From Kondoa subrosea (Eukaryota): a stretch of 64,000 bases of DNA. Under the pieces are notes generated by a model, which did no database searches, was not told where the DNA came from, and worked only from the letters and a program-made list of their open reading frames with translations. Made by a program: the position numbers and the translations under genes. Each line of letters opens with the position of its first letter. Positions within the stretch are counted from its first letter, which is position 1. The stretch is taken from NCBI GenBank assembly GCA_039545335.1, contig BCIN01000006.1:1-64000 (forward strand), read 5' to 3'. This document shows positions 10,021 through 48,488 of this stretch, one piece after another.

Positions 10021-11259
10021 TTATGCTTTGGCTTGCCTCAACTTCTCTTTAGTCTGTTCAACTGTTTCCGCGTGCAGCTCATCTACTTTGCTGGCCCTCT
10101 TCGGGCCCGCGTCTACTGAACCGGTGTAAGGCGAATCGCTATCCCTATCGTTGAAAGCTGAATCTATACCAAGTGCCGCTGCTGCTTCTTTGGCCAAAGC
10201 TGATATCGAATCTGCTGCATCTGAGGCTATTCATACATAAATTCCGGCTACAACCCAGACGAAAGCTGAAGCGATAACGAACCTGTTTCCGATATCGATT
10301 CAGCTGTAGATGCAGCTGTAGATGCTGCATGTTCCTCTTCGTCATCATCTCCTAATTCTGCTCCGTACACGTCAGGATCTAATACAATTCGTTCAAATTT
10401 TGGCAATGATGTGCGAAAGGAAGTAGACTCACGCAATCTGAAACAGTCCTGCATTCCTTTGAACTTCTCTACGCAATCCACTCCCTTTGGCTCTTCTTCG
10501 GAATGAACGAAACAAGAGAAAGCCAGCTTGAATTCTTCTCCACAAGGACCATTGGCCATTCCACCTAAACAAGGGCAATCCCAGTTGATCTCGCCCGTTT
10601 CTGGGTTGTAGGCAGCTTGCTGCGATCCGTCTTCACTCTCTTCAGTACGAGCTTCCGAATCCGATGGAGTGGCAGGAGACGAAGAAGCGGCAGAAGAGAC
10701 ATTAGAAGATGTAGTATGGGAAGGTGAGTTGTTCGTTGATTGAGCCTCCGCTTCTTGTGGTGTGGAAGTCTTTGCTAATTGTGCATCTTTCCCTTGTACC
10801 GACTCTTCGTTAGCGTGTGGTGCTATACGTGGTGTAGAAGTCAGCAAGGTAGAAGGAGCTGGTGGCGGTAAGAGTGTTTGAGCTGATTGTTTCGCTTTCG
10901 TCAAGATTGGAGAAGGAGTATCTTTCGATGCGCGAGAAGTATCAAGCTCTGTAATTGCACAGAAGAGATCACATCAAAAAAGTAGAAAAGACAGGACATA
11001 GATGAAGCGCACTTTTGAGAGCTGCGTTACGATTCGTAGAGTTTGGCAATTGAGAGATGACTCCAGCTACACCGAAGACTGCAACGAGCAAGCCAACAGC
11101 TTTCACATAAGGACTGCTGCCCGATGACACATTTCTCGAATTCGGCGAAGTCGAAGCATTGCGCTGAAGTAAGCTGACACGAGATAGACCATTCGAGCGC
11201 AGCGTTCTGCTCGAGTAGGGTATAACCCTGGACAGGCTGCCCCCATTGCCTTTGATCAT
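10021..11259 (-). CDS. MIA40: Mitochondrial intermembrane space import and assembly protein Mia40
   Basis: [30 protein letters not shown]...[14 protein letters not shown] (CPC plus twin CX9C). N-terminal presequence and TM segment. Confidence 0.95.
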
Positions 11260-12849: not shown

Positions 12850-13741
12850 TTACCTTATCCGCTTGTTGGTGTCCCCGCTGTCCGCGACATAATCGCCCTG
12901 AGTATCATCTTCTGGAGCAACCCGTTTATCCGACGATCCATAAAATTCGTCCCTTGAGACCAAATTGTCCCGTTCGATTGGCACAACAGTTCCATCAGGT
13001 AAAACGACTTTGAAGTTGTTGAGGTCTTTGATGGGAGCGTCGGTGACTTGACACCCCGTGCTTTTGGCTGCAACGATAAGAGCTTGTTTCTGATTCCACA
13101 TGTAGTTCGTATAGCTGCGCCAGTAATCTCTTTGACCTATCAAGTCCACAATAGCATTGTCCATGCGTGAATGGGAAATGTTCCATTGTTGAGCTTGCAA
13201 CGATTCTTTCTCTTCTGCTTGGCTGATTTTAGCTTTGAGCTCTTCAATATAGGTAGCAGCTGCGTTGAGAATGGCTGACTTGTTCTTCTCTGAGTGTGCT
13301 GGTAGAAGAGCAGAGATCTTGTCGATACCGGCATTGATGGTTTCCCTTCTGCGTTTCTCTACGATTTTCTGTGACCGACGATGATCAGCTATGAAAGAAT
13401 GCATCAAGGCCGATGAAACCTACGTGAGACTCTTTCCTAGCTGTATGGACTTCTGCAGGCAGGTCTTCCGGTCTCTTGTTTTTCCTCTTCTTTGGCACTT
13501 TGACTTCTGTAGCTGTTGTAGAAGTAGACTGCCGTTGAGGTGATGAACCATTTAAAGCAGGATCCAGCATATAAGGGCCGTCCTCGTCGTCTTCTGGGTG
13601 TTCATCATCGATTACATACTCGTCCCCTTCGTGATCCTTTGGTGCCGGCCCTGCTGATGATTGTACAGGTAAAGCGAAAGGTAAGGCAGAAGTAGAAGGG
13701 AGCGGGATTCGTGGTTGAGGTGCTTGAAAGACCAAATCCAT
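12850..13741 (-). CDS. bHLH transcription factor, Cbf1-like
   Basis: Spliced basic region RKESH|KIVEKRRRETINAGIDKISALLP...NKSAILNAAATYIEELK, followed by a zipper. Confidence 0.85.
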
Positions 13742-15728: not shown

Positions 15729-18700
15729 ATCCCAAGCTGGACCAAGTCAACTGAGCAGAACTATGAACACAGACGAATATGATTCAGGCAGCGAACAAAG
15801 TCCATCTTTCTCTATCTTCACTCCTTCTATCATCAACGTACCTCAACCATCCTCATCATCATTGGCTAGAAATCCTTCAGTTGAAAGACAGGCAGCCAGA
15901 TCTAACCTCATCCGCAAGTTATCGAAACGGGATGGTCCAGCAACGCCCACTGCACAGTCAGTCGCAGCAATTAACTCCCAGTCCGAATCGGAAACAGAAG
16001 TCATTTCAGATTTCCATGACTCTTCGCCGACTACACCTATAACCAATTCTTCGAACAACCGGACAACTGCAAAGCCTGCTTCCTCTTCTAGTCAGCAAAC
16101 AGCACAGTACCGATCAGATACTTCTAGTGCTGAACCTTCACCTACATCTACAGCATATACGCGTCCATCTTCCATCGCAACAGATGCACCTTCGGAATTT
16201 CGGCCTTACAGGCATACAATTGAAAGAGATAGGGATTCAGCTTTTGCTCAGTTGATGATGGAAGATCAATTTGAATACGCTTCAATACTCAATGGTAGGA
16301 AACCAAAGCACTTGGAGAGTGATGAAGAGGAGCAAGAAGTTTTGGATACACCTCAAGCCTCAAATTTACCGTCCAGAGGTTCTCCGAGACCTGCTTCGAA
16401 GCAAAGTAACCATAGCGCCAACGGAAACAGGAGTCGATCGTCTTCTTCTGCCTCTGCAAATGGCTTTGGGACGCCTTTGCAGCGTAATTCTTCAAGAGAA
16501 ATGAAACGGAATAAGCTATCGTTGGAGGAAATCAAGCCTTTCCCTGCTCCTAGCGCTTCTTATCAATTCCCTAGTCCGCCTCCAACTGCTCATGGCGATG
16601 ACGGGGAAAATAAGAATGGGAGGTTCTCGAATAGTGCAACAAGATCTGGCAGTGGCCTTGCTGCGCCCCCTTTGCACAGACATGGATCGAGCTCGGGCAT
16701 GTCAGATAATCGATCAAGGTTAGTGATGTGTTGCTGACGATCGATGAACGCTGATGCAGCTCCATACTGGCAGAAGCTCGAATAGCAAGAATCGTGATAC
16801 TGCAACTGATCGATCTGAATCTACTCGCTCTTCTAGTAATGGTTCCCATCAGACAGCAAATGGAGCATCCGGACGAGCATCTCATGCCTCTAATGCATCT
16901 CGATCATTTAAAAGTAGTTCAGGCTTTGAGTCGGAAGGCGAAGCTGGATCAGATCTCTCTGAGGAAGAAAATGATTGGGGTAGGCCTCTTCAACAAAGAC
17001 CTGGAGAGATTTCGACATCGACAGATTCAGCAACACGCAAAGCTATTCTAGCTAAATTCTCTTCTATCGTTGCTACCGCTCAACCCACTTTCAGCAAAAA
17101 CGAACTCGATATCCCTCCTCGAAGGTTGCTTATGCATGCTCCGGTGTTACAAGTTGTCAATGCTAATACAGTCAAAGATCGCTACCTTTTTCTGTTCAAC
17201 GATATTCTTGTCATCGCCAAAAGTATTGTCGAAGAAGATCCTGCCACTGGTCTTATGATTCCTCCATCACTAGAAACACGATTTCTCGTCAAGAGCATAA
17301 TAGAGCTGGATAAATTGAAGCTGACCGCCCAAAAAGAAGATGATCCAAACGCTGAGGATCAATCTCAAAAGAAGAAGCACTCACTTTTACAATCCTTCAT
17401 TGATCGATTCGCGAACGATCCAAAGAAAGCAATTGGCACTCTTGTATCTAAAGGCGGGTTGCAGAACGAGCCAATCACTATCGCCAATCTTCTGTTCCGT
17501 ACGACAGATCTCAATCGCTCCCAGCTTGGTGCTTTCCTCTGTAGAAAAGAAAACAAACATGTTCTCAAGGCTTACGTTGATCGGTTCCGACTGACCGGTC
17601 TGAAAATAGAAGATGCGCTTCGAGTTTTCATCGCATCTTTGCGATTGCCCAACGACCCTACAGCAGCAGAGTACCTGTTAGTCATCTTTGGTTCCGTGTA
17701 TGTTACACTCAATCAGGGAAGCGGTATGGAACAAGCGATGTGTGGCAAGCTAGTCATGGCGATGATGGAGTTGAACGATTACCTGCATTCGGGGATGGAC
17801 GAAGAGACAGGAACAATGGGTAATCTCTTTGGTTTCCCTAACCCAGCAATCACCGTGGACGACTTCATGGGTGCATTCCGTTCCAAAGATCCTAAATTCC
17901 AAGTACCGGATGCTACTTTGACTCGAGTTTATATGTCAATCAAGAGAGAACGAGTGCAGCAAGCTGCAGATAACTCCATAGCGGGAATGGCACCTGAAAT
18001 ACCAGTAACCCTCAATCCAGCTCGATTGCCCTCGCGTCTCACCTATCGCATTCCGTCAGAGGAAATTACCGTATCAATACCTCAAGCGGATCCACGATTT
18101 CAAGTCAAGCTATTGGGCAACGACGCAAAATTTGAGCCCAGTGTCCTCAACTTTGCCAAATCGCGCACACAGACATTCCGCATGATTGGAACAGCTTTGG
18201 GTCACAAGAATGTAGTTCTGCTTCGAGCAGGTAGCCATGCAACTTTTTACACGGGTTTGCCAGTCAACAAGACCTTTATCGTCGAGCGGGTGAGGTGACT
18301 CTGTCTTGGCTCTAGATCACGCTGATCAGATACAGGCTTTCATGCGCTATACTTTTCAATTGGCTTTCGTCAATCACCTAGCTGTCAAACGGAAATATAT
18401 GTTCTCAATGTCGGATCTCGACTTGCGCGATAATTGGCTTTCTTGCCTGCGAGCCGGCGTAGAAAACGCGATAGCTGGTCTGGCAGCTCCGAGCGCGATA
18501 TCAAAGAACCATCGGATCGCAAATGCTGTCGCTCTGCAAGTACTTCGAGATGCTCTCATTGCGCCTGAAGAAATGAATGCTGGTACGGCATTGAGCAGTA
18601 CAAGCTTCACGCCTGCTACGCGTAATGGTCGACATACATCCCCCGCCAATGCTCGCCCCGGTCATGTCCGGTCTAATTCTTTCAGCAAGACATATGCCTT

Positions 18701-19033: not shown

Positions 19034-21952
19034 TCACCGTTTGCATTTCTGAGTCATTGCTAATGAATGCCGTTCTCGCTGGCACTGATTTTTGAAGTGA
19101 TGAACTTCTCGATTGACGGCCAGCTCGTCTGCAGTACATTTGTAGCTCTTGGTTCGCCAGAATCTTGCACTAGGAGGCAATGAATCAGAGGCGGACGAGG
19201 TCGCGCAGGGAAGAGCCTCACGTTGACCATACCTCTTCAGCCTGGCCATTCGCGCATCTATCAGATCATGTGTTGACGGACAATAGATACGAGAGATCTG
19301 ATGTCTGTCAGCTAACAAGCCTTTTCTGGAGGTTATAGACTGACATCGTAGTACCACTTCCGCAAGCCAGGCTTTGAATTCTCGTCTAGGATCAAAGGTG
19401 GTTTCTGCATCCCGCAGATCATGACAGAAGCTTTCAGTCTTTTTTGTGCTGATTTTGAGTGTTGGTTGATGACGCTTGTAAGAGCAGCACATCCAGAAGA
19501 GAGGCCGATGAAGATGACTGATTTAGCTTGTGACAGTCTGCGAACTGATATCAAATTCTGCTCCCGCTTCCGGACTATGGAACTCACTCGACAAAGTTCT
19601 CCCAAATGTGTAAAGCGAGCTCTTTCTCCTGAATCTCTTCTTTCTCCCGCGTCGCCTGTTACAAAATCTTTCAGTGATTGGCTTGAAAGGCTGTTGCGAA
19701 ACCTCACTTTCGGATCGTACTTTTTAGGCGATTTTGCCAGCACATTTACATCAATCAGGCCATAACCTCGGAAAGTAACCCAATCTACAACTTCCTGCGT
19801 GCTATTGATCTGCGCCATTCCATTGAGATACATCTAATGCTGCCTCAAACAGAACTTACCAGGTAGCTCTTCTCTAGTTCAAGGTTGCAAGTCCGCATAC
19901 CAATCTCAGCTCGAACAATACCCCTAAAGCGGAAGATGAGTACTAAAGACCGTCACGATCTACGAAACTTACATATCGTGCATCAATACAACTAAAGTAT
20001 CGGTGGTGTAAACATTCTCGCTATCATTCATAAAGTAAATCGACAGATAGATCGGCGTTTGAGCTCTCAGACTCACGAGCAAAAGACCTGATCTTCGAAC
20101 AGCTCTTGCAACTTAGCATTGGCGAGTTCAGTGTTTACTAACTCGCATCGGAAGTACAGATAGTATGCGAGATGAGCCTTGAGGATATCTATTTGCTTTG
20201 TAAGTAACGAGGGACCCGAAGAATCCAATGTAAGCTGACCGCTGATTGGTATAACCGAGGTCGATTTGCTTCGGCCTGGATGATCGTCAATAGCTTCGCA
20301 CATGAGGTCGTGGGCGACAGACCTTCGCGATCCTCATTAAGGGTCTCATTGATGGATTTCCAATACTTGCCTTGCTCGATCGCAACCTCGTACATCACTT
20401 GAGTTGCAGATTCAGATGCGGTAAGAGAAGGGAGTTTCGGCGGTTGTTCGCCCAGTAAGACATTGACACAGGCAAGAGCAGAATTGGCGATAGACTCGAG
20501 ATTGTATCCACCCTACATGCCGTGTTTAGTCAAGATTCTGACAGAAACTCCATTACACTACCTCTAGAGCCAATACCAGCTTGCCATTCGCTAGCGAGGC
20601 CAGCATGTGAGTCATATGCGCGTATCCCGCCGGTGTCACGCTGCATTGGCCTAAATCATCGCCTTCTGCCGCATCGTAGCCGGCAGAGACTGATTGCACA
20701 TGTATGAGTAAGAGAAGTGAATTCAAGCTTTCACGAACCGATGATAAAGTCTGGTGCGAACTCGTAAGCGATAGGCATTACTATTTTCTGGAATGCGTAG
20801 AGATAATCTGCATCGTCCATGCCTTGTTGATCCCAAGGTATATTCACGTTGCTGACAATTCTGCATGAGCAAAGATACCGACCACAAACAGCGAAGCAGG
20901 AACTAACAGTCCGCTTCCTTTCCCTTCACCGATCTGATCTGATGCTCCACCAATACCTCCCGGATAGAAAGACCCGTTTTGAAACTGGTGAATAGATATG
21001 TAGAGCACATCGGGATCATTCCAGAAAGCCTTTTGCGTTCCGTTGCCTTTGTCTGAATTAGCTTCCCTCAAAAAAATGTCAAATGAACCAACCGTGATGA
21101 ACATCCCTGGATTAGAAATCAGATGTGTATCACGGACAAGACTGGACCGACTGACCAATCAAGAATTAAGATCTTCTTTATGCCTTTATCTTTATACATG
21201 TGCTTGACCGCCTGGGCAGCGACAGCAACATTGTTGAAAAAGCAGAAACCCATGGATTGCTCTGGTTCAGCATGATGGCCAGGAGGTCGGACGATAGCAA
21301 AAGCATTCTTGACTTGACCTTCTGCTACCGCTCTGCACGTCTCGATGACACCACCGCACGAGAGACGAGCGCAGAGTGCGGTGCTCTTGTTCAAATATAG
21401 CGACAGTCTGTTGTAGTACTCGACGGTTGCGTATAATTGTTCTTCAGGTAAGACTATCATATACTTTAGAGAAGAATGTTTGGATATACATGAGCGACAT
21501 ACACATAGTCTCGTAGACCTTGTTCCAGAGTTCCTCAGAATGAACGAGCATGACTTCACTCTTGACTGCTTCTCGAACTCTGATCTTCTGCATGCGTTGA
21601 ACGCAGCCAGCCTCTGTGAGAGTGTAAGCCAGGAGGTTCGGAGAAGCACAATTACGACATACTGTCGAACGCTTCAAAGATCTTCAGAATGCGCATAGGT
21701 TGCTCAGGATGAGGATCTTCAGGGTTCTCATGAGTTGAGCGATGCATGCACATAGTTGGATCAAAGCAGTAGCCTGAAAGAATATAGCAAAGATTATGGA
21801 TGAACAGAAGAAGGACAGCAAGCACGACGAGAAGCACCTGTTGTAGGGCGCGCAGTCTTAATTGCGGTTACTTGACCACCATTGCGAATAGCATTAGCAG
21901 AGGTTGAGGCCAATGGAGGGACCGAATCGCCTCGAGTGTCTTCGTCCATCAT
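19034..21952 (-). CDS. HDA1: Class II histone deacetylase (Hda1/Clr3-like) with C-terminal Arb2-like region
   Basis: [86 protein letters not shown]. Confidence 0.92.
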
Positions 21953-29200: not shown

Positions 29201-31861
29201 ACACTTGCTTGCGCTTCCTCGATAGATCGCGCAACTGACGTGACCCGCTCCTGCAATAGGTCCCGCTCACCGACAGCCACTGAGCGAGCTGCTTGTTTCT
29301 CTGATACTCTGGCCGCCCAAGGTTGCAATTCGGCTTGTTTGACTTCGATTTGAGCGGAAATATGCTCAGTTTTGCCTAGAACGGTTCCATCATTAGTGAC
29401 ATGTCAAGCAGTGAATCGTAGATTGCACCTTTCAAGCTATCGCGGACCTTATCCAGCTCAACCTCTTCTTGCTCTAGTTCCTTCTCGAGCTTAGCGATCT
29501 CTTTGCCGAATTTCTCAGAAGCAGCCTTGCTGTCGCGACTACTATTCAGAGCTTCAGAGCGTGTATGCGAGTCCTATTGTCTGCAGTGAGCAAAAGAACA
29601 GATTGCAATAAAATAAGCGATACATCGCTCAAAGTCTTTGCGGCCTTCTTCTGTTTAGCAGAAAAGTGTTTGCGTTGTTCCTGCATCTGAACTTCTTTCT
29701 TGTCAAAGACTGCCAATTCCTTTTCCAACGCTTTCGAAGCCGTTTCAATTTCCTTGCATTCTTTTCAGCATGATGGATGTCAGTAGCCAAGTAAGACGTA
29801 CCTTCAGTTCCGCTTCTGCTTCAGTATATATAGCTTGGTGCTCTTCGTACTCTTGCTTGACACCAGCATTCTTCTTCTGTTCCTCTTCTAGCTGAGTAGC
29901 GGCTTCCGTCTATAGAGAAGATTCAGTACCAAGCGGTAGCACAGCGAAAATCGGAGGCCGTACCATATTACTGTTCAGAGCCTCCACATTCTGCTGAGTT
30001 GTCCACCTATAATGCTGGTAAAGCTTGGATTGAAGGATAGCTTTCTCATTCAAGTTCTTCAGGTATTCATCAGCTTCCTTCTTTCGTCCCTATAGATCGA
30101 TTTGTGAGCAAGAGGTATACGACCGGAAAACGAAACCTACTTCAAGGTTCTTCTTCTCCTTTTCGACGAGCTTCACGCGGGCCAATTTCTCACCTCGTTC
30201 TTCGTTCAAGCGATCTACATCTTCCAAAGCTTTCTCGATAGGTCCCTTGAGCTGTAACAGCAAAGAGCGAGTGAGGGAACGACTTGGAACCTAGGTAGAC
30301 CATTGCTTACATCTGATGTTCCGATGATATCTTCAAGATATTCTAGCAAACCATCTTCGTGCTCTGTAGCTCCTTTTGGCTTCATCTGAGCAATACTCTC
30401 TACCTCACCCTGTTTCGTATGACAAGAGAGAGATCAGTGAACTTTACAAGTTGCCAAGACGAGACACAAACCTGCAGGATCAAGAATCGATTATGATCCA
30501 AATCGATTCCCTTTTCTTTGAACAAGGTGACTACCTCAGTGAAATTACTGCTTCTGCTGTTGATCGTATATTTGGACTTGTTGTCTTTGAAAGCTTGACG
30601 CGAGACGACAAGATTCGAGCCTGGTACAACATCATAGAGTCCGTCTCCCGGCTAGCGATATCTCTGAATAAAGGTCAACGTCCATGTATGAAAGCACCTA
30701 CAAGGTCGATGATCTCGCGGAAGTGCTATAGGCAAAAGTCAACTGAGAGCTGAAGGGTGGAAGTACATTGAACTGACGACTTCGACTGCACAATAATCCA
30801 GATTCATTTTGCCTTCAGAATTGTGAATCAATTCACTGAGCTACGAGTCTAGCGATGAGCACTTTCGCAGACTTGATGATAGGTGAGGACTGGCTCACCT
30901 TGCCCTGCCTCATCTTGGAAGCTCGATAACCGAAAACAAAGAGTAAAGCGTCGATAGTATTCGATTTGCCTGATCCATTAGGACCAACGATAGCAGAGAA
31001 GGAAGAATGGAAAGGACCGATTTCAACTCGACCAGCATAAGATTTGAAATTGATCAAAACGATCTTGTGAATGACTAGTCTGGCTTTAGGTTTTTCAGGT
31101 TCTCTATTCTTCGGTGGTAAATAGATAGGTTCAGGAGTTGCTTCTGTTGTAGTTGCAGGCTCTTGAGTAGGATCAGCAACGGCCGGAGTTCCGCTAAGAG
31201 AGGGAGAAGCTAAAGGAGGAGTCTTTGCTTCCTGTTCTTCTGCAGCATCTGATTGAGAATTAGAGTCAGAGTTATTTTCTTCAGCTTCAGGTTCGACAGC
31301 AGATGGATCGACATGTTCTTGCTTGACTACAAATTCTTGTTGAACAGCTTGAGCGGATGTGGGCTCGTCATCCTCATCACTATCGACCTCTGGTACTGCT
31401 TCTGGTACTGGTATAGGTGCAGGTTTGCTTTTTGGTGCTCGTCGACTGGTTGATTTACGCGCTGGAGCAGCTCTTCTCTTTGGCGCAGGCTTCTCCTCTT
31501 CCACTTCTGAGTCCTCCTGATCATCTTGCTCTTCCTCAGCCTCTGATTCTGATTCCTGGACTACAGCTTTTGCTGGTTTGCGTACAGAGTTACGAGCAGT
31601 CGGTTTTGATCGCATTGTAGGCTTCACATCGCTTTCTTGCTCTTGATCAACATGCTCCTCATCCTCCTCCTGCTCAGATTCAGATTCTGGTATCACCGGT
31701 GCTTTCTTTCGTGTATTTCGACCAGCAGCTTTAGCTGGAACTCGCTTGGCTGGTTTTACTTCTTCCTCTTCCTCCTGCTCCGAGCTTTCAGGTGTAGGCA
31801 CTTTAGTAGGCTTCTTGGAAGTGCTCGAAGCAGTAGAAGCACGCGTTCCTCGAGGCGGCAT
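26202..31861 (-). CDS. SMC4: Condensin subunit SMC4
   Basis: INFKSYAG...[30 protein letters not shown], hinge ([20 protein letters not shown]), [36 protein letters not shown]. Confidence 0.97.
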
Positions 31862-31983
31862 GATTGTTTCGCGACGAAAGAGGTTCGAAAACTAAAAGTA
31901 AACAAGACATGGAAATCACCTCGAGAGCCCCAAATGTGTCAGCATACATTACAGCTGGTTACTAAGTACTGTGGGAAGTATGA

Positions 31984-34380: not shown

Positions 34381-36978
34381 TTACTTCCGAGGAGAAATCG
34401 CTGCCTGTTCCAATTCTTCACTCGAAGGATTACTCGTGTCTTTTGGCCCAACGTCAGTGTTGGGATCAACAGGGTGGACACCTGTCTTTTCGTGCATTGT
34501 CGTCTTCTCGGACATCGGCATGCCTTTCTTGTCTTCCTCACGGACCGATTGCATCTGCGAAACAGTCAGAACAGCTCGCCTGCTAAGAGCACCAGTGTAT
34601 CTCACGTTGGCGACTGTAGGGTACTCTGTCAGTGATTATTCAGCTTGTGGGCCTTCAAAAACTCACAATCATGGATATTCCATCCGTCAACTTCAATATC
34701 ACGATCTGTAGGTAGAAATGAGCCCGAATACACTCGAAAATGGCTAGCAACTCAAGTGCGTGCACAAAATCGTACCTGGGACTCATATCAGCTCATCCTG
34801 GGAGTTTAAAGGGCGACCTACGCATATTCACCACATTCTTCATCGTCAATTCCAACAATCTCGGCATCTTCAGAAGCGCGAATGGAGCAGTACTGTAGGA
34901 AAGCTTAGCCAGGACCAGCACAGCCACACAGAGCACACGCACAGGTATGTGATCGATGATCACAAGAAGAATGTAAGAAATGACGAAAGTCCAACCAGAA
35001 CCGGCGCAAATCCAGGCGATCTGATAGCCAAGTTGAACCCAGTCTACATGAGTGTATGAGCGGGGCGACCGGAGGTAATGTCTGAAGATACTGACTATGA
35101 TCAAACCATCCACCTGGAATTCGAGTGAAAGCATCGTTGAAAGTAACACTGCCTTGAGCAAAGAGACCAGTGCAGATCAGACCGACTATGCCTGAAACAC
35201 CGTGGCTGCGATTACAGCGTAAGACGACATCAGTGCGTAAATGGTGAAGCATACCAAGTGAAAATATCCCTAGGTCGAGTATAAGCGACCATCGATCGAT
35301 CTTATAATGCTTGACTTACATTGGGTCATCGAAGCGGAACCAGACTTTGAAAGAGGTGAGCAAATTACTGATTCCTGATGCCAAAAATCCGACAGCGATA
35401 GACGCAGCTAACGACAAGGGTAAGCACACATTATGAATACGAATCAGCTGTACGTACGGACACCAATGAAACCAGCGGCAGGAGTCTGTCATCGATATAT
35501 CAGCCGCCAGCCGCCTACCGCCTGAAATAGTTGGAACACTTACAATAGCAACAAGACCGCAAATAGCACCTGTGCAGAAACCCACAACAGACCATTTCCT
35601 CTCTAGGCGCCAATCAAGGAACATCCACGTCAAACCACCGACACTGCCGGCGAAATTGGTATTGAAGATTGCCATTGCCGCTTTCAAGTTTGCAGCGAAA
35701 GTAGATCCTCCATTGAAACCGATCCACTGCACACATGTATGTAAGCATGTGCAGCATTAAGATATCAATGCGAGCTTACTCCGACCCATAGGAATACTGT
35801 TCCAATCACGACGTGACTAACGTTGTGCGGTCTGAACTGAAGTCTTGGTGTTCCATAGCCTCTTCTTTTGCCCAAGTAGATAGAGTATGCCAGACCGGTG
35901 AAACCAGAAGCGATTTCAATAGGTACACTACGATAAAATAAGCGGTTGAATGTTAGATGAGCGAAAGAACCCTACCCTCCTGCATAATCTAGCACGCTGA
36001 AACACAGATTTATAAGCTCATATCTACCGCGTTCGAAGCCGTGGAGCGAACCCAAGTTTGAAAGCCCATCCGTTTGGATCTATATCTATAATCAGTAACC
36101 TATTGAACATACCAGGAATATATACACACTCCACACCCAATACGCTAGCGGACAGTATACAACTGTTGCCCAGCAGAAGAAGAACAGCATAGTCGGACCA
36201 ATTCTTCCTCGTTCACATGCTGCTCCAATAAAAATTGCTGGAACCAAAGCCGCAAATTGACCTTGATACAGCGCGTAGACGATTCTTGGGACTTTGTTGT
36301 TTGCTCCTGGTACAGGTTGTTCCAAGACACCTTTGAAACCGAAATGTGAAAGGTCCCCGATAAAAGAAGAACCAGTATCGGAAAACGCAAGAGCTGCAGC
36401 GGGATTAGCTTCGGATGGAGTCCACCTGCTAATGAACCTCACAATATCCCCAGAACATCCACTGGAACGTTACCACAGCTTGAGACAACAAAGTCAGCAG
36501 CAGGAGAGAAAGCGCGTTCTTTCGTCGGACAAGTCCAGAGTAAAGATATCCAAGACCGGGCTGAAGATTGCATCAGCGAGGATTCTCTATAGTGCATGAC
36601 AAGCCACTCACAATCATGATCCTGAGACAGCAGCAATTAGCTTCCCGCTTCGAATGCTAGAGTGCGGAAAAACTTACCAAACCAAAGCTGAACACGTCAA
36701 CACCCATGCCAGATCACCAGGATTGTAAGCCACTAGTGTGCCATCAGGAAGAGTTGTAATTAGATCCGTGCCTATGCAATGTTAACATCTCGGTCAGAGG
36801 CTGTATCTCTGGGTTCTGCTGGACCAGAGCTCACCAAATTGATTGGCGATGTAGGATGGGGCTGTAGCTCCAGCTTCACCTCCCAAGATTCCATAACTAT
36901 CGCACACAAGGCTGGCGATAAGACTTTAAAGAGTTTTGTTATGTTTCCGTCTACTCGCCTTAAATCTACCGTTGGCAT
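34381..36978 (-). CDS. Ammonium transporter (Amt/Mep family), many exons
   Basis: YNPGDLAW, ERGRIGP, WATVVYCPLAYWVW, WIGFNGGS, GAICGLVAI, HGVSGIVG..TGLFA. Confidence 0.95.
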
Positions 36979-37435: not shown

Positions 37436-39765
37436 TTAGAGAATTGTACATGAGCTGAGAGTGATACATTGCAAGTGGTGTAAGCATAAGGATATGAACA
37501 TGAAAGGATATCGAAGATGTTGGTCTTGAAGAGCAGTGAAGTCGTCCTCATCCATCGGTGTGGATTGATGAGTTTGCCTGAATTGTACTCAGCGTCCGAT
37601 TTTAATCGATAATCAGACTCACTGTCTCAGGCGCTTGCTAGAAGGCTGAGAAGAAGCTCCTTCGGTACCAGACTTGTGAGGAGTTTGCTGAGATCCTTCT
37701 GGTCGAGAGCATCGTGGACGCTTGTTTGAGCGAGTAGACAGAGATTCGATCAATGAAAGCAGAGTAGCGAAAGTTTTTGCTGAAGCTCGAAAAGTCTTGT
37801 CACCGAGATCTTGTCTCATGGCTGTTTTGAAAATGTCAGCTAGCTTCTTTGGTATCAAGTTGGGGCTCACTATGACGCATGGTTTCGAAAGCATCAAGAT
37901 ACTGCTCGTTGGTCCAACCTTCATTCTTGACTGTTCCATGATCAATCAGAAAAGGATGTATTTGAGCTGGATTACTCACAAATGAAATAAGTCCAGAGAC
38001 AAAGTTCCATTCCTGTGACTTTCTTGGAGCAATCTGGAACTGGAGCAAGTTGCTTCAAACGAGCAGCTCGACTACCCTTCTTAGGCGTTTTGGTATTCTT
38101 AGCAGTCTCTGCTTCGCTTTCTGCCTCATCTTCTTCGGCGATAGACAGATCAACCAGCTTAGACAAAGCATCATCGACAGCTGCCAAGGGAGATGAGAGA
38201 GAATACTGGCATCCGGAATGCGTGCTTACCAGTTTTGAAGGCTTCGGACGGCTGTTCTTTTCGCTCCTGAAAGGTTTTCTGGATTGCAACAGTTGTATGA
38301 TACTTGACGGAGTTGCCCTCCCACTCCTCCAAGATAGCTAAAGCAGCTGCAGCGACTAGTACATACTGTATGAGCAGATGTGAGTTCTCGCTTGAAAGCT
38401 TCTGACCGATGGCTTACATCGCTGCCTCGATCAAGTTGGGCTACTCGATCGTGCAAACCATTTTTTACAGAAGGCATAAGCTATTCCGGACTGCTCGGTA
38501 CGAGAAATTCATGCTGTCTGAGATTGACATACCGTAGTAGAGATGTGAGTTCGAGCAAGCTCCTCGATCCACTTGGAATAGCCATCACTAGAGGCTTGTA
38601 GCTTTTCGCCAGCTTTGAGAGGTTCGCCGAGTTGAACTCTGTGGCAGAGTCTTCAGCTCAATTTGGAGAATTCGAAATAGTATGACTATACCGAGCAAAA
38701 ATATCACTATCAAACAGTTCAATTAACGCAAGGTGAAATTAGAGAAAACACGCTTACCGCTGATCAAGATCGCTAATATCGTTGTATTCTGTCACCGCAA
38801 TGGCCTTACTCTGTTCTCGCGTCAGATGTGCTAACACTGTCTGATGCACTGAGATTACCTTGAACAACCTTCACGACCAGTGATACTTCTCAGCTATAAT
38901 CCGCCTCGTAAGGAAAGCGAAGCACCTGACATATCGGATTTCCAGAACATTTCTTTTCTCGTCGATTTCTTTTTCGCCAGATGGCACATACCAACGCGCA
39001 CCAGAAAGCTTGTCTGTGGATGATACGTATGATTGATAAGCAAGCATGATTTCAACACATGAGATCACCAACTACTGACCGACATAGGCAATCTCAGAGT
39101 CAAGAAAACGAGCAATAGAAGTCAATCGCCTAAATCAGACATAATAGACATGAGCGAACCAAAAGATACTACTAGAGAGGTTCTTGACGCACTGTTTGCC
39201 ATCCATACAAATTCTCGATTCAGACCCGTCGGTTTCTTGGTCCACCGCAAAGAGAACCGGAGGGATATAGATGTCTTTGAGATGACAGATCAAAAATTAG
39301 CGAGAGTCACTCTCGAGAGATGCCTGTGCCCAGCAAGAAAAGCCTACTTTGAAAGATTGAGTCGATTAGAGCTTCCTGTTTCTTGTCTTCGAATAGCATG
39401 GATGAGCAGTATACAGGGCGCTCGATTGATTTACTGACCATTCCAGACTACTTCTCTCTGATAGGCAGCATCCAAATCAATCAATTCCTCGCTGATCAAT
39501 GCTATACGGCACTCGATGAGTCCAATCTCCCGAAGACAGCACGAGAACAAACTATGCAGTTCAGCACAGGTAGCAGTAGTAAAGAGAGGTTTGGCGAGCT
39601 GTTGTGTGCATAAGTAAGAGACCCTTGAGCGCAAGAATTGGGCGTTACAGCCTGTATGACCAATTTCGGGACATTGGGTGTGACAGCAATAGAAGCATCC
39701 TCTTGCGTAGGGGCCTCTTCTCTCTCACTGGTAGGCTGCTTGACCTTAGTAGCGGAGCGCTTCAT
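37436..39765 (-). CDS. DUF262 domain protein, copy 2 (close paralog of copy 1)
   Basis: IDLDAAYQREVVWN (about 39440-39480), KKQEALIDSIFQ, RICMDGKQ|RLTSIARFL, DIFAR|VQLGEPLKAGEKLQA, RLKQLAPVP, TNEQYLD. Confidence 0.85.
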
Positions 39766-39978: not shown

Positions 39979-42383
39979 TCAAACAGTCACAATCCGGCCA
40001 TTGATAGCTTTAGCATAAAGCTGAAGAGCATCAGGAAGCGAATTTTGAGATATCAACTGGATCAGCTTACTTTATCATTTTTGTAGAAGATCCAATCCGA
40101 GGGAGGAAGCTTCTCGGGTGTGCCGTATTTGTGTAAGAATGAGTCGATTGAAGGAGAGCTATGGGCACGTTTGCAGAGCTTGTTGGCTTGATGGTAGTGG
40201 CAACTATTTGAAGAACAACATCAGTTGGCAGCCAACAACACATGAAACCGCCTCCTCACTCGCCCAGAATATAGAATATGCAAGCTTCGTTCGGCCAGTG
40301 AGGAGGCACATGTCTATAGCGGCCATGGACATTGTATTCGTCGATAATCTTGCCTGGCGAAGATACTCTCTGGGCTGATGAACTCAACGCATGCGATGTG
40401 TTTTTGGTCAGATTCTTGGGACCAGTTGGTATGGGCAGCTGTAAGGCATTGAACGCTTCTTGATGACTAAAGCATTGCAAATAGAGTAAGTACCTGCTTG
40501 AGAATATTAACTTTTGCCTACTTCTCCGTTGGAGCTTTCCCAATTCGATCAAAAAGAGCCGTCGCTCTGCCTCTTATCGAAAACGCGTCGGGTTTCACAT
40601 TCGAAGATGTACTTTCTACATAAGCAGCGTCTGGTATTGAAACACGCTTTTCTAATGGTGTTGCACATAGAGGTTTGCTTTCCATCGGATGAGTGGACGT
40701 GCGCGCCTCCTGATCCTTTGCGCTCTGCATCAGCACATCTTTCAGAAGAGCTTCCCAAGCATCGTCATGAGCAGCAGTATCGTTGACTTGGACTGTTTCT
40801 ACGCGTTCCGTTGAGACGGAAACATTACTCTCGGAGCTGTTGTCTTCAACCGATAGTATTTCCACGTCTCCCCAAGGACTCTTAGTCGGCTTCTTATTAT
40901 CGCGAATCTTGAATTCACATGATGCATCTATTTCGCTGCTTGAATCAAGCCTTCGTCTTTTGTTGATGGAGTCATCGGATGCTGCTTCTAATGTTCGTTT
41001 ACTGCCAGGACTGACGGCAGAAGGTTCGATGATAGGTGGGCGAGCTTCAGCTGAAGTTTCCACTGAGATCCGGCTACATCCAATGTTAACTAAACGAGCG
41101 GATCTTTTCCTAGCGAACGCACTTGACGATCTTCACCAAAAAGGTCCATGCTTCATCTGTCCTGGGTATATCTGCCGTGTACCTTTCGCCTACTTCTAGT
41201 CTGAAAAACCTAATTGCATTTCGCAGTACGTCGTCGGTTAGATGCTGGAGCTTGTGCATGAGATAAGGGAGAATGATGAATTCCATAGCGCGAAGGATGC
41301 TAGGATTGTTGAAAACGGGGTGAGTGGCCTCTGTTTCCGCACTCCGGACGATCGATCCAGGTCGCATGTCTAGAGATAGTTTCCCGATACGATCACTGCG
41401 GTGCACAGTATCAGAATCAGTAACGCTACATGGTATCGTACGCACAGTATACGTATAGCCAAAGCTATGGTGCTTCCCAAGTCTACCTGAGAGCTACTCG
41501 AGTCTAGCCATACTGAGAGATCAACCAGATCGAAAGGACCACAAGTAAGCTGATCTTGAAGAAGATTGAGAGATCTTATGATGTATGCAAAGATGATGAA
41601 GAGCTCGGTCTGCGAGGCAGGAGGTAAAAAGCGATGGAAAGTGACTGATGGCCGACCAAAGCTGTCTACAGGCTGGAGATATTGCTTCATCATTTCATGG
41701 ACCATTTGAGCAGTGTCTGAGTCTGAACAGGCTAGCTTTTCCGCAGCTGACAAAGGTGAAGAGCAATTCGACCTAAGGAATATTTCCCTTTCTTGCTGGG
41801 AAGACAGGTTTGGGTATTCGCAGATAGCAATTTCAAGCTGACAAAAAGTCTGAAGATCCATTGTGGACAGCACAAGAATCTCGTTTCTAAAGATTGGCTT
41901 GGAGCCGCGATTTGCTGAAATACGTGTGCATTTTCAGCACAAAGATGGAGAGCTGATACATTCACTAACTCATATCAAGGAAAGAGCGTAGAGTCTGCAA
42001 GCGTTGCGTCCCATCGATAATCCTACGCGATCCATCTTCATTGGAAGCTCTGTTTCGATTTCAGTACTATTTAGTCAGAGCCATTCAGCTGGTAGACCAA
42101 CAATACGATCGGAGCAATCTAGAGGAGAAATATCAGAGGCGGGCTGACAAAGGCCAGACTCGTTATACATACGTGCTCATAGCCTTCGCCAATACAATGG
42201 ATGTAAAGTGCTTGTGCTTCAGCTGACCATTGTGACTCTCTCTCAAAGAGCCTGGGACTATTGCACCTGCAAGCAGCTGGTCATAGATGTTTTGCACAGA
42301 AAGTCGCTCGCAACGAGATTTGGGCAAAGGCTGACAAGGATGATCAGCATGCGAAACAAGCTGAATACACGACTGCAGACCAT
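39979..42383 (-). CDS. Divergent DUF262 protein with C-terminal CCCH zinc finger, copy 3 (apparent frameshift near 42250)
   Basis: NIYDQL, FERESQWSAEAQALYI, IIDGTQRLQTLRSFL (about 42000), EREIFLRSN; C-terminal PPHWPNEACIFYILGD|CHYHQANKLCKRAH. Confidence 0.72.
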
Positions 42384-42644
42384 AATTCGAGCTTTAGAAC
42401 CGTCTGTGTTTGGCCTGTGGCTTATGTCTGCAGATATTCAGACTTCCAAAATCTAGAAATGTTGTTTTAGAGATCACGCTAGGTCTTCTGCTGCAACACT
42501 CTTGTATCGCGAGGACAGAGTGAGTGATGCTACACGCGTGCGCTGGTATGATCCTCTAGAAGTAATATCGTTGTTGCATGAAGCAAGACAATCATTACAT
42601 AATCTGAATCCGAATATGAACATGGCAATTCGATCGAAGAATAG

Positions 42645-45499
42645 CTACAATACGAGTATGTTCTCATTTACATCCACGTAAGCGCACTTGATTTCGTCTT
42701 TGAACCAACACCATCGTCCTTGCAACATCCGAGGTTGACCGAAGTACGCAAGATATACGTCCAGCTCTCTTGATCTCCCATGGTATCTATCGCATTTGAA
42801 GCCTCTGTTGCAATCCTTGGAGTAATCAAACCAACTATGGCGCAAGATAATGAAGCTTCAGCGCAAAACGATCTCGGAACAGAGCTCTGAATGGCTTACC
42901 AAGAGTCAAAAGGCCAATACGGAGGGAATCTGTTACCCCCTTTGCGATCAACAGAGCCAATAACGAGACCCTTTTTCAGAGCTGCCGGGTTTGGCCATGG
43001 CCAAGGAGGATCAGAATGTCTATGGCCCGGCGTGACAGCTGTTGGCGGCGCTGGGACGAAATTGGTACTAGAAGTAGGTTGCGGTCTTTCAAAAGTCGAT
43101 GTATTTATAGCAGGAGAAATAGGTCGATGTTGAGGCCAAGCTGTCGGCAAGGCGTTTCCTAGCTGTGAAGAGCTTGAGCAGCCGGGTATCTTGAACTCCT
43201 GTCTTCCATTGCCTGGCACATTGCTCTCAAGAGATGCAGATCTGCCAGTTGGTTGCACATTGACTCCTTCAGGTCCTCTCTTGCTACCTTGACCCAAAGC
43301 CGCTTGTGCATTTGAGCCTTCTGCTAGTATAGGATCTGGCACGAAGGAATTGATCGGTGAAGGTGATCTGCGAAAACTGAGAATTCCTGAATTGGCAGCA
43401 GAGTCTGGTCGTGAGGTGTTTTGCACCGGAGTAGACTGGGATCGAGCATCGCCTAGAGATCCGTGTCGCGTGAAATTGGGAAGTTCTCGTATCAAAGACG
43501 TAGGTGACGCCGCGAAGCCAACACTTCTAGCGGGCTGCGGTGCTGCAAAAGAAGCATTCTGCATTGCTTTCGACCTATCAGGCGATCCTGTAGCAGGTTC
43601 GACCACTGCGCTACTTGATTGGGTACTGATAGGCTGCAAAGCGTTCTGCGGTGAAGGGAATTTGCGGGGATCAAGAGAGGGCAGCGACGCTTGCAAAGGA
43701 GAAGTGTGACGCGAAGAGGGTTGCTGAAGCGATGCTTGCCTTCGAGGATCCACTGTAGGAGATTGTTGCTTGCTGCGCATGATGTTGGGAGACAAGGTCG
43801 ACTCAGCTGAAGAGATTCTTGAATGAGCTTCTGTGAGAGTCGGACTAGCTGCGACTGTGTTCGCTTGAGCCAGATCAGAGTTCGGAGGTATAAAGGTGTT
43901 AGAAGCAGGCGAAGGCGAAACATCATGGATAGACATAGGCGCAGGTGATTCTGATTTGACCGATTCATGTCTGGGTCGCTTGTAGCTAGTAGATCTGTTC
44001 AGTATTGTCCGAGCTGGACGTTTGAGCCCTCTTGATGATGTTGAAGAGGCCGCGTTAGAGACATATGTTCCTGTCATTTGCGTTGCGCTGATGGATCTAT
44101 AGGAGAATTTGAGCTGGACGTGACTGCTGTAGAATAATAACAGATAACTGACTCGATGATGATCTTCAGGGCGTTCCAGGTATGGAAACTGTACGAGAAG
44201 CCTTCTGGATACGTGCTAGATGCATTGCGCCGAAAAACTTCGACAGCTTCCCGAAGCAATCCCTTTTCCAGAGATCGGTGGACGTGTAGCAAATATGGTA
44301 GTAGAATAAATTCAATAGAAGATAGAAGACCGCCATTGGTGATGCACGAATGGACAGGCAAATGCTCCTCTTGAAGGTCATGTTTACCATGCTCAGGGAC
44401 AGAAAGTTGATTAAGATGATCCCTGTTAACATGCAGTCATCCTGTTGAAGCAAAGGACTTCATCCAGCAGAAGAACAACTTACAACGTCTGCCGAGAGAT
44501 TTGCACTACTTGTTCGCTCACTTCTTCTGCTGAATTTAGCCAATCATCGAGACTGTCGTCGTCGACGAAAGCGTAAGTTCCATTGACTGTCAGATTCTCC
44601 ATAGCTTTCAAGACTCTAGCCCAAGCGGTATGAACATAACTGTTGGGTTTGATCACAGCGAAAGCGAGAAGTCGGTCATAAGTAGGAGATGGACCAATGT
44701 AGTTTGGATAGGTGCTATTGCAGATTCTATTGAGGCAGGAGCTGTGCAATAGAAGATGATAGCTTACTATTCTTCCCTCCTGATCAACAGCTTCAGCAAA
44801 AGCGATGACACAGCGCACCGAGAACACTCACATCTGATTTATATAAGACGTGACAGGACCAAAAGAAAGACCGCTCCGAACCTCAGCTCGAGACAGGCTC
44901 AAGTGAATATTGGATCGCTGGAAAATTACAGCCTCGTCTTCCTCTGAAAGGTCATCATAATTGACTACTCTGATGGGAATCTTTTGGAAGATTTCGCGTT
45001 GAGATTGAGGGAGTACACGCCGATCGGGTGAAGATTGGCCGGGGGAAGAAAAATAGAAATAGTTCACATCGAAAGAGTCTTTAACAGGAATTTGACCAGT
45101 CATGAAGGCTTGAATAGCTAGCAGTCTTTGCTTTCCATCGATGACCAGACCGTGTAGAACGCCCTTCTCTGTTTGCCCTGAGCTTCTGCTTGTGTCTTCA
45201 GCCAAGCAGCCTACTGCAGAGTACTTCAACTAACATTACGATAGGTGCGACATGCTGGAAACGCCTGAAAAGACTGTTGATGTACGAAGATTGCTGCTCA
45301 GGGCTCCAATCTGAATCTATTCGCATTTGCCCAAAACGGGTTCATCAAAATACAACGACGAAATTGGCTCATCGAGCTCACCTCTGGTAAAAGGAAAGGA
45401 AATCTCATTATTCTGCAACTGATCGTACAGCTCAGACAGGAATGGAGAGCCAGGCGTGCCAGCAGGCAAGCATTCAAGTTGAAATTCGTGTCCAGACAT
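42645..45499 (-). CDS. Divergent DUF262 protein with C-terminal CCCH zinc finger, copy 4
   Basis: ELYDQL...PFTR|DSDWSPEQQSSYINSLF, VIDGKQRLLAIQAFM (about 45100-45145), EAVIFQRSN, long Ser/Pro linker, PPYWPFDSC|WFDYSKDCNRGFKCDRYH. Confidence 0.8.
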
Positions 45500-46380: not shown

Positions 46381-48488
46381 CTATTTTGCTCCTAAATACC
46401 CTCTCAATTCCCTCAGCAGGATATGTTGATCTTCAGGCGATAAATGATTGACAATAGTATCCATCAAGCCTGCTACGCTGACCGCATCTATTCTGACCAA
46501 AGAAGTGTAGTAGAAATACGCAAAGACGCCCATCAAAAATCTGTGCATGTTTCAAGTCATGACATGCCCTGTAGTGCATAATTAAAGGCTTGAGACGCAC
46601 TGGCAATCCATTCGATCTGTCATTCCACCATGACCAGGAATTGAATCGCCGAAATCTTTGATTCCAAAAGCTCTCTTGAACCCTGAAGCGAAGAATCCAC
46701 CAAAAGGTGCGACCAGGGAAGCAAAGATGGCCATGACGATCGTATGTAGTTGGAAAGGTGCCCAAGAGAAGGTTTCAAAGTTACCTGGTAGCCAATTCGG
46801 TAAATCGTAAGAACGCCAAAGGAAAGCTGGATTAGGATCGCAAGTAGTATTCGAGAAGGCAGATGTGCCTAGATCTCTACATGGGCAGATCATGTATTGA
46901 TATCGCATGAAGAAGGTAGCCCACTGTGCACATGACGACGTGATTGAATCAGCATAATACTGACTACTTCCGCGTCGAACGCACAGCATAACCAAAGATG
47001 ACAGTCATGAATAGAGCTCCAACAAAACCTTCAACAGTCTTCTTGGGACTGAGTTTGATCAGTTGATGTCGACCAAAGAGCATGCCTGTCAGATTAAAAA
47101 TGGATGATATCAGACTAATCTGAAGGCCAAGCATCATGTACTGACCACATATGTACGCCCAAATGTCATTGCAAATGACTAAAGAAGCAGGAACGAAGAA
47201 CCAGATCAACCCTTCGAGGATGTTATTGACCATGAAATGACTGTCAAAGAAGACAAAGACAAATCAGTATCATCCTGATGTCTTCAGTATCATCCCTGAC
47301 CTTGAGAATACAATCAAGAGCAAACTCATATGGATCCAACAGAACAAGCTGAATTGTCTTGCCAGAGTTTCTCTTTGCAAAGTAGTAACGAAAGCGACAA
47401 AACCAAGAGTCCACAACATGAATGAGAGGAAGCGATGATGTTTTGCAAAGCCAAGAAAGTATGTGTCGACCAGAACGATGTGCTGTCAGTGATCATGATC
47501 GCCTCGAGCCAATAAGTTGACTCAAGCTGAAACAACTGACCTTGAAATAGTATATAATGGATTCACCATAAAGGAAATAATTCGAGATAGCAAAGAAGTA
47601 CCAGCTGAGCATCTTGCTATAAGTGTCTTTTTCTCCTTCCCTGCGTCCACTTCTTTTCGCTTTAGCAGGTTGATGTGTCATTGATCTCCATCCCGCATCA
47701 AACAAACCGACCAATTCCCTGAACACACTAGCTTGCAAGAAGAGCACGCCAACAATGATGTAGATATGACCCATAAGCATTGTAGCGATGAAAACAGCAA
47801 TCATGACTAAAGTCCAAACCGTTCTTGTAATGATTGCTTTCCTTTTGGTCGACGGAGCATGATCAGCGCCGTGTGGTAAAGAGTTGACGTTCTGAGGTTG
47901 AGTAGTATCCACTTCTTTCGATCCCGCTTCCTGCTCAGCTTCTGCTTGACCTTCTTTCACATTGTCAACATCATCGCTTGCATCGGCCTCTTCACTCTCC
48001 TCCTCCTCATCCTCTTGATCATCAGCTTCGTCATCTGCTGTGACAGACGATTCGTTTGCCATAGAAGAAGCAGGTCTTGAAACTTGAGCGGATTCATTGC
48101 CCTCTGATTCCAGAGGCTCATCCTCATGAGAAACAGTCACAGCAGGTACACTCTGTTGCTCTCGCTGCACAGGTGAAGCCTCTTGTTCTTGTTCTCGCTC
48201 ATTAGCCTTCTCAACCGAATTCGACAATTGCTGCTGTTCTACACTTTTGGTCTCCAGCTGACCATTGACTTTCTTCAGATCCGAAACTGAAGTTTTTGGA
48301 GTTAACGCTCTGCTAGCTTTCCTTTCTTGCGCCCGTCTTCGAGCTCTTTGCTTTTTCGACAAAGGTGCTTCCAATTGCGTAGCATTCGGTGTGTCGGGTT
48401 GGGAGGACGAGGACTCGTTGTCTGAATCTTCTCCTCCTGATCCCTGAACATCCAACAAGCTGTACACTGACTTGTAAGGTGCTGACAT
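46381..48488 (-). CDS. CDS1: Phosphatidate cytidylyltransferase (CDP-DAG synthase)
   Basis: [65 protein letters not shown]. Confidence 0.96.

Follow-up and report, generated by a model that had tools for sequence, protein, structure and literature searches.

Introduction

In bacteria, DUF262 domains are known from nucleases directed against phages, where they form the nucleotide-dependent sensor half. In proteins of the GmrSD, BrxU and SspE types, which belong to type IV restriction and phosphorothioate-sensing defence, the DUF262 domain is N-terminal, carries the motif (I/V)(I/V)DGxQR and is followed by a helical region; the GmrSD type is defined by a C-terminal DUF1524/HNH nuclease. NsnA of the Menshen (NsnABC) anti-phage system (PADLOC PDLC03877) is nuclease-less on its own, has partner proteins encoded beside it and carries no zinc finger. 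A separate class of domains is represented by the CCCH fingers (C-x8-C-x5-C-x3-H type, PF00642) of RNA-binding proteins such as TIS11/tristetraprolin, MBNL and ZAP. The present analysis concerns a locus of Kondoa subrosea in which features of both classes occur together. Positions 1 to 64,000 of contig BCIN01000006.1 (NCBI GenBank assembly GCA_039545335.1, forward strand), the 64,000-nucleotide stretch called here the window, contain four DUF262 gene copies, of which copies 1 and 2 have standard motifs and copies 3 and 4 have CCCH tails.

In copy 4, the DUF262 domain and the CCCH tail are joined in one uninterrupted spliced frame, and a conserved CCCH-patterned C-terminal module of 75 residues is found in both copy 3 and copy 4. 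The sequence anatomy behind this observation, with predicted splice junctions, is confirmed. The interpretation offered in the first-pass annotation of this DNA, an RNA-binding ParB-like protein, is supported in part. The anatomy probably represents a new DUF262 architecture, in which a CCCH-type module not reported before forms the C-terminus of a eukaryotic DUF262 protein, and the fusion in copy 4 is likely to be real.

Copies 3 and 4 resemble the GmrSD, BrxU and SspE proteins in the N-terminal position of the DUF262 domain, in the form of its central motif and in the helical region after it. They differ from them in that a long disordered linker with a nuclear localization signal (NLS) and a CCCH tail stand in the place of the nuclease. 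Copy 4, moreover, has no detected DUF1524/HNH domain, has TR in place of the QR motif and is a eukaryotic gene with introns. NsnA is the best profile match of both copies, but it lacks the finger, and it acts with partner proteins encoded beside it; copies 3 and 4 have paralogues and housekeeping genes as neighbors. With the PF00642 fingers, copy 4 shares the ligand order and spacing and the Gly after the second Cys. Unlike those proteins, the two copies have a single finger inside a longer conserved tail, an 8-residue second spacer in copy 3 and no profile match.

Predicted Spliced Architecture of Copy 4

The gene models of copies 3 and 4 were built by script from minus-strand coordinates, with splice sites chosen by the authors. 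Copy 4 (45499-42645, minus strand) gives a single open frame of 833 codons in seven exons, at 45499-45382, 45316-45215, 45168-44832, 44771-44484, 44422-44153, 44096-42900 and 42834-42645. The six introns are all GT-AG and measure, in order, 65, 46, 60, 61, 56 and 65 nucleotides (nt). The longest exon is by itself an open frame of 439 codons.

Exon 1 starts with the ATG at 45499-45497 and encodes ELYDQL and FTR, the latter a variant of the DUF262 QR motif. The intron after exon 1 (45381-45317, 65 nt, GTGAGC..AATAG) is in phase 1. Exon 2 continues with DSDW...APIVMLV, which includes the DUF262 "IPPI" strand at 45248-45228, and ends at the 46-nt intron (45214-45169, GTAGGC..AAACAG). The DUF262 core lies in exon 3, with DGKQR at 45139-45125 and IFQRSN at 44926-44909. 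Exons 4 and 5 encode a middle region without known family, in which EFILLPYL is found at 44313-44290; exon 4 is flanked by the introns 44831-44772 (60 nt, or 69 nt if it extends to 44763) and 44483-44423 (61 nt). A phase 2 intron (44152-44097, 56 nt, GTCAGT..TATAG) leads into exon 6, which encodes the Ser/Pro/Ala-rich linker of 390 residues, PPYWP at 42925-42911 and the first two bases, TG, of the codon for the first finger cysteine (Cys1). The finger intron (42899-42835, 65 nt, GTAAGC...CTGAA...CCATAG, phase 2) splits this codon as TG/T, the slash marking here and below a splice junction. The last exon carries the remainder of the finger, YFGQP, WCWFK and the stop codon at 42647-42645.

Three other introns were considered for copy 4 and dropped, one of 49 nt with a GTTTCC donor, which would remove the APIV strand, and two of 26 and 29 nt, which were too short. 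Among the 13 introns proposed for the two genes, copies 3 and 4, about 10 contain a CTGA(A/T)-, CTGAC- or TTAAC-like branch motif, in most cases 15-30 nt upstream of the 3′ AG; this may be the branch-site consensus of the species. The many short GT-AG introns of the two copies, 46-65 nt long, would in our reading be a pattern of fungal type.

The CCCH-Patterned C-Terminal Module

The ligand spacing that defines zf-CCCH fingers is C-x(7-8)-C-x(4-6)-C-x3-H. After splicing, the copy 4 finger at 42901-42780 reads C-x7-C-x5-C-x3-H, a canonical spacing, with a Gly three residues after the second cysteine (Cys2). Exon 6 ends with ...PPYWP-FDS and TG (42900), and the donor GTAAGC at 42899 is the sole usable one ahead of an in-frame stop. 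With the acceptor CCATAG at 42835, exon 7 begins with a T, which completes TGT (Cys), and a CTGAA branch-like site lies 21 nt before the AG. The first-pass annotation of this DNA had reported the same pattern and the split cysteine codon, with the intron at about 42836-42898; the analysis reproduced both and placed the intron exactly at 42899-42835. A second AG is present 21 nt upstream of the finger acceptor (window 42857-42835). It is a possible alternative 3′ splice site and would also give an in-frame Cys, in the spacing C-x14-C; its use would mean an intron of 44 nt with no room for a branch site.

In copy 3, the finger at 40282-40161 has the pattern C-x7-C-x8-C-x3-H, as had been described earlier, and is preceded by PPHWP at 40306-40292. 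Cys1 is encoded in the upstream exon; the 56-nt intron that comes next (40259-40204, GTGAGG...AAATAG) interrupts the codon of the Asp preceding Cys2. The finger exon (40203-40071) encodes Cys2, Cys3, His, KYGTP and WIFYK. After a further intron of 50 nt (40070-40021), a last exon of 13 codons (40020-39979) ends in the stop codon 39981-39979, and position 39979 coincides with the start coordinate given in the first-pass annotation. The flanks that had been noticed there are present in both copies, namely PP(Y/H)WP before the finger and (F/Y)GxP with W.(W/F)(F/Y)K after it.

Conservation of the module between the two copies is well above chance. The last ~80 residues of copy 4 and copy 3 give a local alignment score of 80, compared with a mean of 24.6 (standard deviation 4.5, maximum 55) in composition-preserving shuffles, none of 2000 of which reached 80. 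Identity extends to 22 of 73 aligned residues, 12 of these 22 being encoded by different codons, and all four ligand positions, and no other Cys/His positions, are conserved between the tails. PPxWP occurs three times in the six-frame translation of the 64 kb, compared with 0.2 times in shuffles, and two of the three occurrences directly precede the two fingers. For the strict CCCH pattern, the unspliced translation of all six frames gives 0 occurrences, and 30 shuffles give 0.23 on average.

Modeled by itself with AF2, the last copy 4 exon reached a pLDDT of 69.1, with one helix and three strands after the knuckle. In an ESM Atlas feature search with the same exon, zf-CCCH clusters ranked first, at 0.89 with 162 of 256 features, a score that lies below the 0.9 level and serves as a lead only. 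Membership of the tail in the CCCH family is thus suggested by two things, the ligand pattern and this lead. An RRM identity was considered for the part of the tail after the finger (42648-42779) and was dropped. The faint phmmer match to TDP-43 RRM1 was not significant (E=1.1), no Pfam RRM was found at E<=10, no RRM was among the structure matches, and the tail is too short for a full RRM.

Continuity between the DUF262 Domain and the Tail

Outside the tail, copies 3 and 4 share 28 of 91 residues in the DGxQR region (21 by different codons) and 26 of 90 in the middle exon (18 by different codons). Since identity, of about 30%, and codon differences are alike across the regions, the protein sequence of the tail appears to have been under constraint for as long as that of the other regions and to about the same degree, and the many identical residues that use different codons speak against a recent gene conversion of the tail.

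Copy 3 (42393-39979, minus strand) has the same layout as copy 4. Its DUF262 and middle exons (42049-41970, 41914-41446 and 41395-41123, separated by introns of 55 and 50 nt) contain DGTQR at 42015-42001, IFLRSN at 41783-41766 and EFIILPYL at 41283-41260. An entry intron of 49 nt (41122-41074) leads to the linker exons (41073-40522 and 40466-40260), which are separated by an internal intron of 55 nt (40521-40467) and carry an NLS-like motif, PPHWP and Cys1.

Two introns are common to the copies in both position and phase. One interrupts L/D (phase 2) before the middle exon. The other, the linking intron, follows KIVK or IIIE and forms the junction into the linker; it is 56 nt long in copy 4 and 49 nt long in copy 3. 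Just past this intron, bipartite NLS-like motifs lie in frame in both genes, KR-x12-KRPR at 44023-43970 in copy 4 and KR-x11-KRRR at 41000-40950 in copy 3. The remainder of the linkers, which are Ser/Pro/Ala-rich and count 390 and 237 residues, respectively, is unrelated, and the earlier description of unrelated disordered linkers was therefore borne out, apart from the NLS. The shared introns and the in-frame conserved NLS argue for the finger exons being part of the DUF262 genes.

This evidence bears directly on a different reading, in which each copy would consist of two genes, a DUF262 gene ending at the unspliced stop (at 44074 in copy 4) and a separate gene for the disordered region and the finger, starting from an overlapping ATG. 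Such a split is very improbable. Its sole support is that the stop of the unspliced copy 4 DUF262 frame at 44074 overlaps the ATG of the linker frame (ATGA, 44077-44074), an overlap that is probably coincidental, whereas both copies enter the linker in frame through the GT-AG linking intron of 56 or 49 nt, whose codon position and phase they share. The linker open reading frame (ORF) of copy 3 has no Met for ~135 codons and the NLS lies ~100 codons upstream of its first Met, so that a separate downstream finger gene is hard to reconcile with the conserved signal. The colinear order is also the same in both old paralogues. Separate finger genes had been named in the first-pass annotation as the outcome that would overturn the fusion, and the shared introns and the in-frame NLS speak against them.

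The DUF262 Domain and the Middle Region

Copies 3 and 4 are kin to DUF262 proteins by motif and by profile. The profile scans were made on single exons, a length at which GmrSD_N scores below threshold are not surprising. The PADLOC profile of NsnA matched exon 3 of copy 4 with E=3.7e-8 (31 bits) and the 26-residue DGTQR exon of copy 3 with E=1.1e-4; the latter exon also had weaker PADLOC matches to HEC-06 and PD-T4-2_A. Pfam GmrSD_N (PF03235, cut-off 33.2 bits) matched the same two exons with E=8.4e-4 (19.9 bits) and E=4.7e-4 (20.8 bits), respectively, and in both copies the match falls in the same region of the profile, that of DGQQR.

The QR..W and IPPI motifs, N-terminal in the domain, keep their order and spacing in copy 4. 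The QR motif itself is TR in copy 4 (FTRDSDW), ER in copy 3 (FERESQW) and QR in copy 2 (YQREVVW), that is, the Q is replaced by T and E, respectively. The central motif reads VIDGKQR in copy 4 and IIDGTQR in copy 3, with K or T in place of the central Q. IFQRSN of copy 4 and IFLRSN of copy 3 stand where copy 2 has IFARVQ, a motif that appears there only after splicing (IFAR/VQ). These substitutions agree with the earlier description, with the qualification that ER of copy 3 lies in its broken, frameshifted part. The assignment of the N-terminal domain of copies 3 and 4 to DUF262 is supported by the profile and motif matches. In the accessible text of PMC4619093, the (I/V)(I/V)DGQQR motif of DUF262 is predicted to bind and hydrolyze nucleoside triphosphates (NTPs).

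No DUF1524/HNH nuclease domain and, apart from GmrSD_N, no other family was found by Pfam in 12 ORFs (E<=1) and 7 exons (E<=10) of copies 3 and 4. The C-terminal domain that defines the GmrSD type is thus missing, and the linker and the CCCH tail stand in its place. The middle region of the two copies had no Pfam match, and an ESM Atlas search with the middle exon returned nothing usable. The AF2 model of one middle exon is helical and of low confidence (pLDDT 49.7), too poor for a structure search. When exon 3 of copy 4 was compared with PDB sequences, only a glycosyl transferase was returned (E 0.035), and it was rejected as a chance match.

Erosion of the Copy 3 Start

The first-pass annotation had proposed the DUF262-CCCH fusion for both copies. 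For copy 4 the proposal holds as one spliced frame, whereas for copy 3 it fails at the start, whose damage that annotation did not mention: an upstream in-frame ATG is lacking, the frame shifts twice, and behind the IAPIV exon the donor reads GC where GT is expected. The eroded 5′ region (42393-42074) still contains NIYDQL in frame 0, FERESQW...YEH in frame 1, a 54-nt intron (42172-42119) and IAPIVLLV in frame 1. Between NIYDQL and FERESQW there is a frameshift without space for an intron. Farther on, GATGGG stands 34 nt from the conserved acceptor, where a distance of the form 2+3k would be required. The pieces FERESQW...YEH and IAPIVLLV are relics of the same domain. They are identical to residues 37-69 of copy 4 at 16 of 33 positions (48%), and their alignment score of 91 was reached in 0 of 1000 shuffles (21.4 +/- 4.1).

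Downstream of DGTQR, copy 3 is open for ~590 codons in seven exons with good splice sites. All three or four lesions fall within the first ~330 nt, the following ~1770 nt being free of them, and because the lesions are confined in this way, uniform neutral decay of the copy is unlikely. Copy 3 may be a young pseudogene, inactivated very recently, or else a derivative that is truncated at the N-terminus and retains linker and finger. One possibility is the use of a 123-nt intron (42172-42050, GTATGT donor at 42172), which would skip the relic exon and bring an ATG located three codons ahead of this donor in frame with DGTQR. Two other solutions were dropped, a 50-nt intron with a GTATAA donor, which was read from the wrong frame, and a 38-nt intron that borrows an upstream ATG.

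Searches for Relatives and Prior Description

Sequence searches found no relatives. The DGKQR exon of copy 4, compared with longer proteins, gave 141 candidates, none of which scored, and the middle-exon alignment of copies 3 and 4 gave 1563 candidates, again with none scored. A control search with a copy 1 ORF that has the standard motifs was equally blank (264 candidates, 0 scored), so that these word-seeded blanks carry little weight. In metagenome scans, 200 patterns matched with the middle-exon alignment and 240 with the tail alignment, and 0 were confirmed in either case.

No fusion of DUF262, or of a ParB-like domain, with a CCCH finger was found in the literature searched, which covers few subscription journals. 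DUF262 and CCCH are both mentioned in PMC3710099, where, in the part of the article that was available, they stand in unrelated table rows. In the accessible text of PMC4619093, 3 of 613 fully sequenced organisms are eukaryotic and the strings "zinc" and "fung" have 0 occurrences. Nor did work on the function of eukaryotic DUF262 proteins turn up in the literature searched, as judged by titles and the beginnings of abstracts among the matches listed. The DUF262-CCCH architecture is provisionally regarded as previously undescribed, in agreement with the first-pass annotation.

Evaluation of the Fusion

A number of points weigh against the fusion of a DUF262 domain with a functional CCCH module. 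The case is a gene prediction in one window in which one of the two copies is broken, and the claim, as it is derived from sequence, is a modest one. The frame of copy 4 hinges on a short intron of 46 nt with a GTAGGC donor, and the erosion of copy 3 shows that the family is dispensable at least in part. Within the finger, the second spacer of copy 3 has 8 residues, beyond the usual 4-6, and the finger intron lies within the Cys1 codon in copy 4 and before Cys2 in copy 3. When scanned at E<=10, neither copy 4's last exon nor copy 3's finger exon, both of which lack Cys1, matched any Pfam family, zf-CCCH included. The AF2 model of the last exon found no structural match, as Foldseek against the PDB gave none at E<=0.001 (best 1.2) and the best Z of VIA wide was 2.4. 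Compared with 1,835,955,588 representative proteins, the last exon had no credible relative; there were three matches at E ~9e-4, one to a granulin repeat protein and two to proteins without a Pfam family, and all were judged spurious. Finally, a codon-usage score favors the proposed frame in six of the seven exons of copy 4 and in seven of the eight of copy 3, and both failures are the finger exons; this score was trained on 9 long ORFs, mostly Ser/Pro-rich, and cannot decide the finger exons.

Part of these observations would be expected if both copies were decaying pseudogenes, with the CCCH pattern a relic and the open frame of copy 4 a reflection of splice-site choice. This is improbable. 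The clear damage at the 5′ end of copy 3 favors it, but the same copy stays open for its ~590 codons past the lesions. The unusually short intron of 46 nt that copy 4 requires also counts in its favor; yet this intron (45214-45169) gives a spacing of 17 residues from PIV to DGKQR, exactly that from IPPV to DGKQ in copy 2, and its acceptor AAACAG/AG is kept in copy 3. The weaker codon score of the finger exons and the blank searches for relatives, which had little power, complete the case for decay, and they have to be set against 833 open codons across six canonical introns in copy 4, with the 439 codons of its longest exon alone.

Other points concern the nature of the tail. The fusion could be real and the tail a zinc- or Cys/His-stabilized module for protein contacts or DNA binding, or else a structural knuckle in a larger alpha/beta domain, and this is unlikely, though less so than general decay. 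The absence of a Pfam zf-CCCH match and the unusual spacing in copy 3 would fit such a module, as would its conserved length of ~75 residues compared with ~27 for a finger, the conservation of PPxWP in front and the predicted helix and three strands behind. The aromatic residues, too, lie elsewhere than in typical RNA-stacking CCCH fingers. Copy 4 nevertheless has the textbook C-x7-C-x5-C-x3-H arrangement with its Gly after Cys2, and the Atlas neighbors, as a lead only, are zf-CCCH families. That the tail binds RNA is plausible, although its chances are put somewhat below even.

Possible Function and Origin

Under the explanation preferred here, copies 4 and 3 would be old tandem duplicates (~30% identical) of an ancestral gene that, in a eukaryote with fungal-type introns, had already combined three parts. 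The first would be a nuclease-less DUF262 N-terminal domain (ParB/Srx-type, NTP-binding) with a helical middle region, the second a long disordered linker bearing a bipartite NLS, and the third a 75-residue C-terminal module around a CCCH-type zinc knuckle, partly assembled by splicing. Copy 4 would be intact and would most likely encode an 833-residue nuclear protein. In this protein, the DGKQR domain would bind, and perhaps hydrolyze, a nucleotide and serve on nucleic acid as a switch or clamp, while the CCCH module, on a disordered tether of ~390 residues, would bind to nucleic acid in single-stranded form, RNA being the most likely kind. Copy 3 would recently have lost the start codon and the first strands of the DUF262 domain. 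Taken as a whole, that is, as a fusion that yields a nuclear, NTP-switched nucleic-acid binder, with copy 3 eroded, this explanation is given a slight preference. Expression and nuclear location of the copy 4 product, and its binding of zinc, RNA and NTP, are inferred from the sequence.

For a DUF262 protein that is free of a nuclease and carries an NLS and a CCCH module, a testable nuclear role would suggest itself, in which RNA or single-stranded nucleic acid is bound under the control of a nucleotide switch; if this is true, the protein would be another example of a prokaryotic immune domain rewired in eukaryotes. A more specific proposal is that the lineage domesticated a prokaryotic NTP sensor of the defence-type DUF262 family and replaced the nuclease by an NLS tether and a CCCH RNA-binding module. 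This proposal is speculative and rather improbable. If it were true, the nuclear protein might sense RNA, or couple RNA to chromatin, in genome conflict with viruses or transposons, and the triplication in tandem, the rapid divergence of the genes and the recent erosion of one of them could be read as traces of an arms race. The locus offers a natural comparison within 40 kb, with two copies that have standard motifs, one with an intact CCCH tail and one CCCH copy that is freshly truncated.

Paralogues and Neighboring Genes

The window is eukaryotic, has a GC content of 43-49% and contains ordinary housekeeping genes in pieces. Ordinary eukaryotic genes surround the DUF262 locus. They encode a CHCH (Mia40-like) protein (10251-10973, minus strand), a bHLH protein (12853-13419, minus), a Sec7 guanine nucleotide exchange factor (16748-18295, plus), a histone deacetylase (21122-21673, minus), an SMC N-terminal domain (30833-31891, minus), an ammonium transporter (35316-36469, minus) and a protein of the CDP-diacylglycerol synthase family (46582-47004, minus).

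Copy 1 (7700-9810, plus strand) and copy 2 (37600-39765, minus strand) are the DUF262 paralogues with standard motifs. Copy 2 lies directly downstream of copy 3, so that copies 4, 3 and 2 form three DUF262 genes in tandem. Like copies 3 and 4, copies 1 and 2 are intron-rich and have the DUF262 motifs in the same order; outside the motifs, there is no significant similarity between the two pairs. The motifs of copies 1 and 2 are YQREVVW, LIDSI, IPPVLF, DGKQ/RLTS and IFAR/VQLGEPLKAGEK, and their C-terminal ends have a basic tail, KRMRQ or KRLRQ; no Cys/His finger is seen in these two copies. Their exons are very small, as exemplified by a 48-nt exon for RLTSIARFLDSEIAYV in copy 2, and copy 2 may extend past 37619 via one more intron.

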